A program made the translations under genes and the position numbers. From NCBI GenBank assembly GCA_964583985.1, contig CAZOYD010000012.1:1-58485 (forward strand): 58,485 nt of DNA, read 5' to 3'. A model generated the notes under the pieces. It made no database searches. It was not told where the DNA came from and saw nothing but the letters and a program-made list of their open reading frames with translations. Shown one piece after another: positions 6,374 to 8,434 of the stretch. This DNA comes from an uncultured archaeon (GTDB lineage Archaea; Asgardarchaeota; Lokiarchaeia; Sigyniarchaeales; SOKP01). Position 1 is the stretch's first letter, and each line of letters starts with the position of its first letter.

Positions 6374-8434
6374 ATGGCTGATAACAATACTTATGACGCT
6401 GATGATATCCAAGTACTTAAAGGCCTCGACGGCGTATGCTGATTTTCATATTTCATGAATAGCAGCCAAAGAAAGAGGCCGGCAATGTACATCGGCGATC
6501 AAGGCAAGAAAGGGCTTCACCACCTTGTATTTGAGGTTTTGGATAACTCAGTTGACGAAGCTATAGGTAGTTATGCAAATGAGATTAAGGTTACCCTTTT
6601 TCAAGATAATTCTGTTCAAGTTTATGACAACGGTAGAGGAATTCCTATAGATGAACATCCTGAATTTAAAAGACCTGCTTTAGAAGTCATAATGGAACAT
6701 CTTCATGCAGGTGGTAAATTCGATAATAAGAGTTATAAAATTTCTGGAGGATTGCATGGTGTAGGACTTTCCGTAGTTAATGCCTTGGCAGAATGGTTGG
6801 AAGTTGAGATACATAAGGATGGATGTATTTATAGACAGAGATTTTCTCGAGGAAAAAAAGTATCAGATCCCGAAATTACTGAGACCAATGATAAGGGCAC
6901 CTCTACTCGCATTACGTTTTATCCTGATAAGGAAATTTTTGAGTTTGATGAGAAAGAGAGAATATTTACACCTTCTATCATAAGTAATAGAATGCGCGAA
7001 CTTGCATTCTTAACCCCGCAAGCTAGATTTGAATTGAACGATAAATTTGCGGATGTCAAGGAGGAATTCTTTTATGAGGGAGGAATTCAGGAATTTATTT
7101 CTTACCTTAATAAAGATAAACAACCATTGCATGACGATATTATTTATATTAGTGATTCAAATACAGATACTGATGGATCTGTTGTCTATTGCGATGTAGC
7201 ACTGCAATATAATCAAGGGTATCAAAGCAATATACTATCTTATGCAAATACCATAAATACCATCGAAGGTGGGACTCATCTCACTGCGTTTAAAACTGCT
7301 TTGACGCGTACTTATAATTCATATATCGATAATTTTATGGAAAAAAAATATAAAGAACATTTATTGAGTGGATCTGATTCACGTGAGGGTCTATCAGCCG
7401 TCATATCTGTGAAACTCCCCGATCCCCAATTTGAAAGTCAAACAAAAATAAAGTTAGGAAATCCTGAAATGCGTCAAATTGTTGGTCAGATAGTAAGTGA
7501 TAGATTAACTCAATACTTGGAAGAAAATCCAAAAACTGCAAAAGCGATTGTCTTGAAATCTATTAACGCTAAATTAGCTAGGGAAGCAGCACAAAAAGCA
7601 AGACAATTAATACGCAGAAAATCAGCCTTGGATAGTGCCCGAATGCCCGGAAAACTCGCTGACTGTTCCTCGAATGACCCAAAAGTTGCCGAAATTTTCA
7701 TCGTAGAAGGTAATTCTGCTGGGGGATCTGCAAAACAAGGACGAGATAGGACCTATCAAGCTATTCTTCCGTTAAGAGGAAAAATTTTGAATGTGGAGAA
7801 ATCTCGCTTGGATAAAATTTTACAAAACGCTGAAATTCAATCATTAATTAAAGCTTTAGGTGTGGGTTTTAAAGAAGACATAGATCTAAATGAAGCCAAT
7901 GGTGAGTCTGAAGAGGAGGAAGATGAAAATGGGAATTTTGATAATCAGGACACGTTTGATCTTAGTAAGCTGAGATATCATAAGATTATTATTATGTGCG
8001 ATGCTGACGTTGACGGTTATCACATAGAAACACTTTTACTTACATTTTTCTTCCGTTACATGCGGCCTTTAATAGATGAAGGTCATTTATATATTGCTGT
8101 TCCTCCATTATATAAGGTATCTTATAAAAAGGACAAAGAATATGTTCTTTCTGATAAGGAAAAGGATGATTTAATTAAGAATATTATGAATAAGTATAAT
8201 CTAAAAAACGCGGAATCTATTAAAACTCAGCGTTACAAAGGTTTAGGAGAGATGAATCCAGAGGAACTTTACGATACAACTATGAATATTAAAACTCGCA
8301 GGCTGAAAAGGGTAATCTATGAAGATTATATTGAGAATGATTTGATATTTACCAAATTAATGGGTAAAGAAGTAAAAGCTAGAAAGAAGTTTATCATTAG
8401 CCATTTTGATGAAGTAAAGATATTAGATATCTAA
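6374..8434 (+). CDS. gyrB: DNA gyrase subunit B, split gene: exon 1 6374-6436, exon 2 6470-8434
   Basis: Exon 1 = [21 protein letters not shown]; exon 2 begins RKRPAMYIG; [53 protein letters not shown]. The ORF-track start at 6455 lies inside the insert. Confidence 0.95.
6437..6469 (+). other. Putative 33-nt BHB (tRNA-type) intron in gyrB mRNA
   Basis: TGCTGATTTTCATATTTCATGAATAGCAGCCAA has an in-frame TGA. Relaxed BHB: central GGCG/AGCC, bulges UA|U and AA|A, inner GCU/AGC plus UUCAU/AUGAA, exon stem GGCCUC/GAGGCC. Removal gives GTA|AGA (V-R). Confidence 0.85.

Follow-up and report, generated by a model that had tools for sequence, protein, structure and literature searches.

A candidate bulge-helix-bulge intron in the DNA gyrase subunit B gene of a Lokiarchaeia-type archaeon, and similar short inserts in other genes of its genome

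The gyrB gene of an uncultured archaeon, which belongs to the Promethearchaeota as a Lokiarchaeia-type Asgard, is interrupted by a 33-nt insert that is very likely an archaeal mRNA intron of the kind spliced by the endonuclease EndA and the ligase RtcB. The insert lies in the stretch of DNA analysed here (58,485 nt of contig CAZOYD010000012.1, hereafter the window), where it parts the residues GLDGV from RKRPAMY. The frame opens at ATG 6374, runs through GLDGV into an in-frame TGA at 6440-6442, and can be read again from 6470 to a stop at 8432-8434. The initial annotation had described an intron splitting a conserved GyrB motif, and all of its coordinates were confirmed; when 6437-6469 is taken out computationally, the V-R junction is restored and a stop-free GyrB of 675 amino acids results. 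The Pfam domains HATPase_c, DNA_gyraseB, Toprim and DNA_gyraseB_C all fall in exon 2, and these four domains with the adjacent gyrA point to DNA gyrase subunit B as the interrupted gene. The interrupted copy is the sole gyrB on the genome's contigs, and the earlier argument against gene decay holds, as gyrB and gyrA are both single-copy and otherwise intact. The Toprim motif of exon 2 reads EGNSAGG, the usual form in bacterial GyrB being EGDSAGG.

Contigs from two salt-marsh DNA runs (X1 and X2) span the insert with 0 differences, so it is not an assembly error. The insert is also present, with four changes, in another strain from these runs; two of the four, G6438A and C6463T, swap a G-C pair for A-U in the inner stem, and no change is listed in the pairing exon flanks 6422-6436 and 6470-6480. 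Features of the locus are collected in Table 1, together with similar inserts found elsewhere in the genome.

Table 1. Coordinates of the gyrB locus, its predicted bulge-helix-bulge (BHB) elements and similar inserts in other genes (positions without a contig handle are those of the window)
Feature	Location	Strand	Description
gyrB exon 1	6374-6436	+	21 codons; N-terminal arm or "brace" of the GyrB ATPase domain
Putative phase-0 BHB-type intron	6437-6469	+	33 nt, in-frame TGA; fold and same-junction inserts in relatives
gyrB exon 2	6470-8434	+	654 codons and stop; HATPase_c, DNA_gyraseB, Toprim, DNA_gyraseB_C
gyrA	8467-10917	+	Intact, single-copy; 32 nt downstream of gyrB
Exon-exon stem, 5' arm	6422-6427	+	Fold; helix 1 in covariation
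Exon-exon stem, 3' arm	6475-6480	+	Fold; covariation
Central helix 5' strand (6431-6434) and 5' bulge (6435-6437)	6431-6437	+	Predicted cut 6436/6437
Central helix 3' strand (6464-6467) and 3' bulge (6468-6470)	6464-6470	+	Predicted cut 6469/6470
Intron-internal hairpin	6438-6463	+	Stems 6438-6440/6461-6463 and 6445-6449/6455-6459
AIR-synthase-like gene	C123:4542-4513	-	30 nt, phase 1; perfect BHB is also the minimum-energy fold; intact homologs
cdhD	C37:5799-5830		32 nt, phase 2, frame-shifting BHB; intact homologs
Ribosomal protein uS8	C106:4095-4123		29 nt, frame-shifting; intact homologs
nadE	C85:7886-7915		30 nt BHB; exon boundary falls between Pfam positions 143 and 144; also in G016
Thiolase	C2:124178-124207		30 nt BHB; intact in relatives
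Acetoacetyl-CoA-synthetase-like gene	C70:973-1002		30 nt BHB; intact in relatives
RNase HII (rnhB)	C1	-	30 nt within DEAGRGP motif; restored motif and 4+4 pairing
Rpo1N	C2	-	31 nt within GHFGH-IEL motif; restored motif and 4+4 pairing
Rubredoxin (in window)	58210-58179	-	32 nt with stop between CPV and CGV; central helix 4 bp, inner stem 4/4

All of the stems named in the initial annotation are present in the predicted RNA, but the motif is less regular than had been proposed. In the minimum-energy fold of the gyrB region (-20.5 kcal/mol, z = -2.2; 7 of 200 shuffles did equally well), U6437 is paired with A6464, while the strict BHB form, at -18.3 kcal/mol, is 2.2 kcal/mol less stable. In this copy the central helix consists of three pairs and a G.A mismatch, and the 5' bulge is closed on its intron side by 6438-6440/6461-6463. 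On the exon side of the 3' bulge there is one closing pair at most (C6430-G6471, a position that is A.G in most relatives), followed by an internal loop and an exon stem of 5-6 bp, and for this reason the motif is relaxed on the exon side, not canonical, as is that of cbf5. The mismatch, the energy cost of the strict form and the poor exon-side closure count against splicing. Cuts after the second base of each bulge, the splice points suggested earlier, do release exactly 33 nt and rejoin V to R, and the geometry arises in place in 0.5% of shuffled inserts. Group I and group II self-splicing introns, spliceosomal introns and inteins were rejected for an insert of 33 nt that ends TG...AA and contains a stop.

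The main evidence for a BHB motif in gyrB is the occurrence of 41 distinct inserts at one junction, all with this geometry. Inserts at exactly the same position were found in 23 of about 114 genomes of the family (113 and the window genome, all with a gyrB match), representing three genera, and in 21 metagenome loci. Their lengths are 30, 31, 33, 52 or 53 nt, every one breaks the frame by a stop or a shift, and every one base-pairs with exon 1 through its 3' end. The pairing block is four bases long and stops two bases short of the 3' cut; opposite it stand the Gly-Val codons of the exon, with four pairs in 36 inserts and three pairs in five. Length classes 0, 1 and 2 modulo 3 are all represented, and the BHB cuts restore the frame whatever the class. 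Removal of the intron leaves open frames of 645-675 residues in 21 of 22 full-length intron-bearing genes, the other being cut by a contig end. The GyrB of an intron-less relative is colinear with a solved GyrB from residue 1, and exon 1 of the 23 intron-bearing genomes shows 1481 synonymous against 379 non-synonymous pairwise codon differences. Named records with the same insert are Promethearchaeota MAGs (for example LW40_45, ABR15, AMARA_1S and CSMAG_2412), of which three are identical in sequence to same-genus loci and five match loci of the same family. The insert was not found outside the family among the matches listed, a set that stops short of 66 weaker ones, in five extra genomes or in the closed genomes G043 and G054. 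No allele bearing an ORF was found at the site in pattern scans that reached only about 55 nt, all inserts being 53 nt or shorter.

Covariation among relatives, which had been put forward as a check on the stems, was evident in the 21 short-class insert sequences, the very sequences from which the structure was drawn. The proportion of paired cells was 92%, compared with 35-46% with slid partners, and compensatory changes on both sides occurred in 9 of 18 pairs. Compensatory cells numbered 38 against 11.5 in shuffles, a test that relatedness inflates. The exon stem (helix 1) was 93% paired and includes two pairs with compensatory changes at synonymous sites, and the intron-internal helices 3 and 4 also show such changes. 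The exons are under constraint as well: all 23 of 23 intron-bearing genes use GGY for the Gly codon of the central helix, as do 33 of 68 intron-less genes, and the mean exon-stem energy is -12.8 kcal/mol with the intron and -6.3 kcal/mol without it, in samples where kin are not independent. The inner hairpin is kept across genera. An additional GC-rich hairpin of about 20 nt, strongly conserved, sets the 53-nt class (L034-L045, L014 and L029) apart from the 30-33-nt classes, which lack it.

The genome encodes two EndA paralogs (PF01974); read by eye, the Tyr, His and Lys catalytic motifs are present in only one of them. Such a pair, a catalytic subunit on C4 and a structural subunit on C3, is consistent with an (alpha-beta)2 enzyme. 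A single RtcB ligase gene (PF01139) and intron-bearing tRNA genes are also present. Cutting and ligation in the cell, and the parts of EndA and RtcB in them, are inferred from sequence: the gyrB pre-mRNA would fold into the relaxed BHB, the (alpha-beta)2 EndA would cut it after 6436 and after 6469, and RtcB would join the exons into a message encoding the full 675-aa GyrB with its N-terminal arm. The gyrB intron has no coding content, and the mRNA must very probably be cut and rejoined.

Similar inserts of 29-32 nt appear in at least nine further genes of this genome, ten with gyrB, and comparison with intact homologs indicated the same geometry in phases 0, 1 and 2 (Table 1). A genome-wide scan for BHB-flanked breaks ranked gyrB second. 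The structure-only scan is weak alone (11 candidates against 7-9 in shifted-cut nulls, the excess being confined to inserts of 40 nt or less, with 5 against 1-2), so each candidate was checked by homology or motif. At the AIR-synthase-like site (L261-L290), same-site inserts of 29-30 nt occur in two genera with near-identical exon flanks; the loci read hold six further or same-site inserts in this gene, and its frame is short in about a fifth of 115 family genomes. Relatives carry inserts of 32 and 36 nt at the cdhD site (L291-L320). The uS8 insert is common to G004 (L364 and L368 were read); the 29-nt insert of G003 is another one and probably sits close to that site. The rubredoxin gene has no in-frame ATG just upstream. 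When about 400 matched gene stretches were compared with 660 kb of a closed relative without regard to motif, one frame-breaking insertion of 14-130 nt came up on this genome's side, and it has BHB geometry; the eight insertions on the closed relative's side are all open-frame and none has BHB geometry. Two candidates, C11 50840-50892 (glycyl radical) and C33 23812-23784, were rejected as relatives keep these stretches as coding sequence. Frames nevertheless seem broken near, not at, both rejected sites, in a glycyl radical enzyme (C11:50300-51600) and in a radical-SAM-like or unknown protein (C33:22300-24300). A pattern scan of viral contigs was discarded, the pattern being too loose and its matches chance.

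The distribution of the gyrB intron is patchy. On a GyrB tree built without the junction region it needs 17 changes, at least 14 of them forced by well-supported branches, and 46 of 500 shuffles scored as low. An AU test on a quick tree, with groups set by intron length, rejected a single clade for both the 33/31-nt class (p = 5e-77) and the 53-nt class (p = 0.0005). The flanks follow the intron: over 48 flanking bases the nearest neighbour is also intron-bearing for 22 of 23 intron-bearing genes, and over the gene body it is intron-less for 13 of the 23. Among 13 intron-plus/minus pairs, codons for the same residue differ in 105/155 cases (68%) within 7 codons of the junction vs 211/938 (22%) in the body; in nine intron-less pairs the corresponding values are 24/114 (21%) and 111/676 (16%). 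L035 and L062 differ in only 4 of 73 body codons and in 7 of 12 junction codons, too many for drift since their split.

As the flanks travel with the intron and the distribution is patchy, we infer that the intron and about seven flanking codons per side have been exchanged by recombination, and convergent selection on the exon stem contributes to the likeness of the flanks. Two cases look like gains: L015, placed among intron-less relatives, has a cassette resembling those of L001 and L005, and the 53-nt intron of L014 is of a type characteristic of another genus. For most pairs the direction may have been either gain or loss. Had the intron been lost precisely, by way of reverse-transcribed mRNA, the flanks would have stayed as they were, contrary to what the plus/minus pairs show. 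No nuclease driving the exchange of the gyrB intron was identified. The best blastn match to an in-genome source was 16 nt long, on C87; it falls on the antisense strand of a cysteine-synthase-like coding region that is intact, and was taken as chance. The intron is probably a near-neutral passenger, gained and lost by short recombination tracts with about seven codons of each exon, codons that would travel with it because they belong to the splice signal. We lean towards the broader view that in one Lokiarchaeia-type family the tRNA machinery routinely splices at least ten ordinary mRNAs per genome, and that non-coding introns of about 30 nt spread between genera as cassettes of intron and short exon flanks without a mobility enzyme, a class of protein-spliced mobile mRNA introns.

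A regulatory role, in which splicing efficiency tunes gyrase output and selection maintains a real intron, is compatible with splicing. An unspliced RNA would yield no enzyme with the intron inside a conserved motif, the inner hairpin is conserved across genera, and negative regulation has been proposed for the cbf5 intron (PMC2738675). However, about 80% of the family, close relatives included, is without the gyrB intron, its presence is nearly random on the tree, and similar inserts sit in unrelated genes that share no function; such a role seems unlikely. We consider ribosomal recoding without RNA splicing (stop readthrough, for example as selenocysteine, frameshifting or hairpin bypassing) to be very improbable. 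The insert in the window keeps the frame and has a single TGA, the genome has a predicted tRNA-Sec, and a hairpin could stall ribosomes. Among relatives, however, TAA, TAG and TGA all occur as stops, several to an insert, and lengths fall in all three classes modulo 3, so no single recoding rule works; what is conserved is an exon-intron helix at EndA spacing, and not the take-off and landing codons.

Slightly less credible still is translation without splicing from Met 6455 inside the insert, or from further down, which would give a GyrB without its N-terminal arm. ATG 6455 is in frame and opens a 659-aa ORF, but only 8 of 41 inserts offer a start codon downstream of the final stop in the exon-2 frame, many of the 41 have a stop immediately ahead of exon 2, and a GyrB starting at Met 6455, raised earlier as the case against splicing, is thus not borne out across relatives. 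Exon 1 is conserved at the protein level, the N-terminal brace touches the partner subunit's nucleotide such that only the dimer hydrolyses ATP (PMC4159350), and an internal start leaves the BHB covariation unexplained. The least plausible reading is gene decay or inactivation by insertion, in a gyrase that the cell can do without, or else an error of assembly. Several near-complete relatives without a gyrB match might favour it, but contigs of two runs bridge the insert without difference, nearly all of the full-length genes regain open frames after removal, and pairing is kept while insert sequences diverge. BHB splicing covers every insert length class, whereas readthrough, frameshifting, internal starts and decay each fail some.

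According to reviews, two archaeal mRNAs are substrates of the tRNA splicing endonuclease, of which only cbf5 is interrupted within its coding sequence (PMC10485636, PMC7714728), and introns in other archaeal coding genes were predicted but unconfirmed according to the 2009 cbf5 paper (PMC2738675). In the literature searched, cbf5 is thus the only gene with a shown BHB-type intron inside an archaeal coding sequence, to which gyrB adds a very probable case. A search for mRNA introns in gyrase, Asgard or Promethearchaeota genes found no report, most subscription papers lying outside the search. The cbf5 intron of Desulfurococcales and Sulfolobales (Watanabe 2002; Yokobori 2009, PMC2738675) is 16-44 nt long and that of gyrB 30-53 nt; both are short, non-coding and placed in a conserved motif, and they share a relaxed BHB, a predicted cut after the second base of each bulge, a hetero-oligomeric EndA and lineage gain and loss. 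The gyrB intron appears to work like that of cbf5, having been positive in the sequence-level BHB tests apart from the relaxed exon-side closure. It differs in its gene and phylum, in the presence of such inserts in at least 10 genes of this genome and in moving with exon flanks between genera, and whereas cbf5 splicing was demonstrated by cDNA, gyrB splicing is predicted from DNA sequence. The insert is not an orthologue of the cbf5 element, as it lies in gyrB and this genome's cbf5 is intact at the catalytic Asp codon.

The 46-nt intron of Haloferax volcanii HVO_1309 (PMC7714728) is an mRNA BHB intron processed by the tRNA splicing endonuclease, as predicted for that of gyrB, and has the same type of motif, but it sits in the 5' UTR and leaves the reading frame uninterrupted, whereas the gyrB insert breaks the frame. 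Archaeal tRNA introns, including those of heavily interrupted Asgard tRNA genes, share motif, size range, presumed enzymes and repeated gains with the gyrB inserts (bioRxiv 10.64898/2026.10.13.758758). That preprint covers tRNA genes only, reports the highest load in Jordiarchaeia and Atabeyarchaeia, and makes no mention of mRNA, cbf5 or gyrase. The BHB introns of archaeal rRNA that encode LAGLIDADG homing endonucleases, like the short derivatives left by deletion (PMC2738675), are also patchy and mobile, and the exchange of gyrB flanks resembles homing co-conversion. Unlike these LAGLIDADG-bearing introns, the gyrB inserts of 30-53 nt are without an ORF; longer alleles would have escaped the pattern scans.

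If gyrB and the other genes are spliced, an Asgard lineage would commonly have introns in coding genes, taken out by a protein enzyme and not by a spliceosome, which bears on the tolerance of intron-rich genes before eukaryogenesis. Such genomes would also be mis-annotated, with split or truncated universal genes skewing completeness scores, pathway calls and phylogenomics. Were the mobile class real, it would belong to the closest prokaryotic relatives of eukaryotes and include the messages of gyrase, a ribosomal protein and RNA polymerase. Because sister genomes with and without the intron exist, the gyrB site is one where the arrival and loss of BHB introns can be tested directly.

Gyrase itself is unevenly represented. 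Three genomes that are 99-100% complete (G015, G032 and G271) had no match to the gyrB query, and gyrase may have been lost in parts of the genus and be dispensable, so essentiality cannot be used as proof of splicing. In G105, which belongs to another class, three gyrB-like starts (L095, L099 and L102) lie within 4 kb on one contig, a duplication or an assembly repeat.
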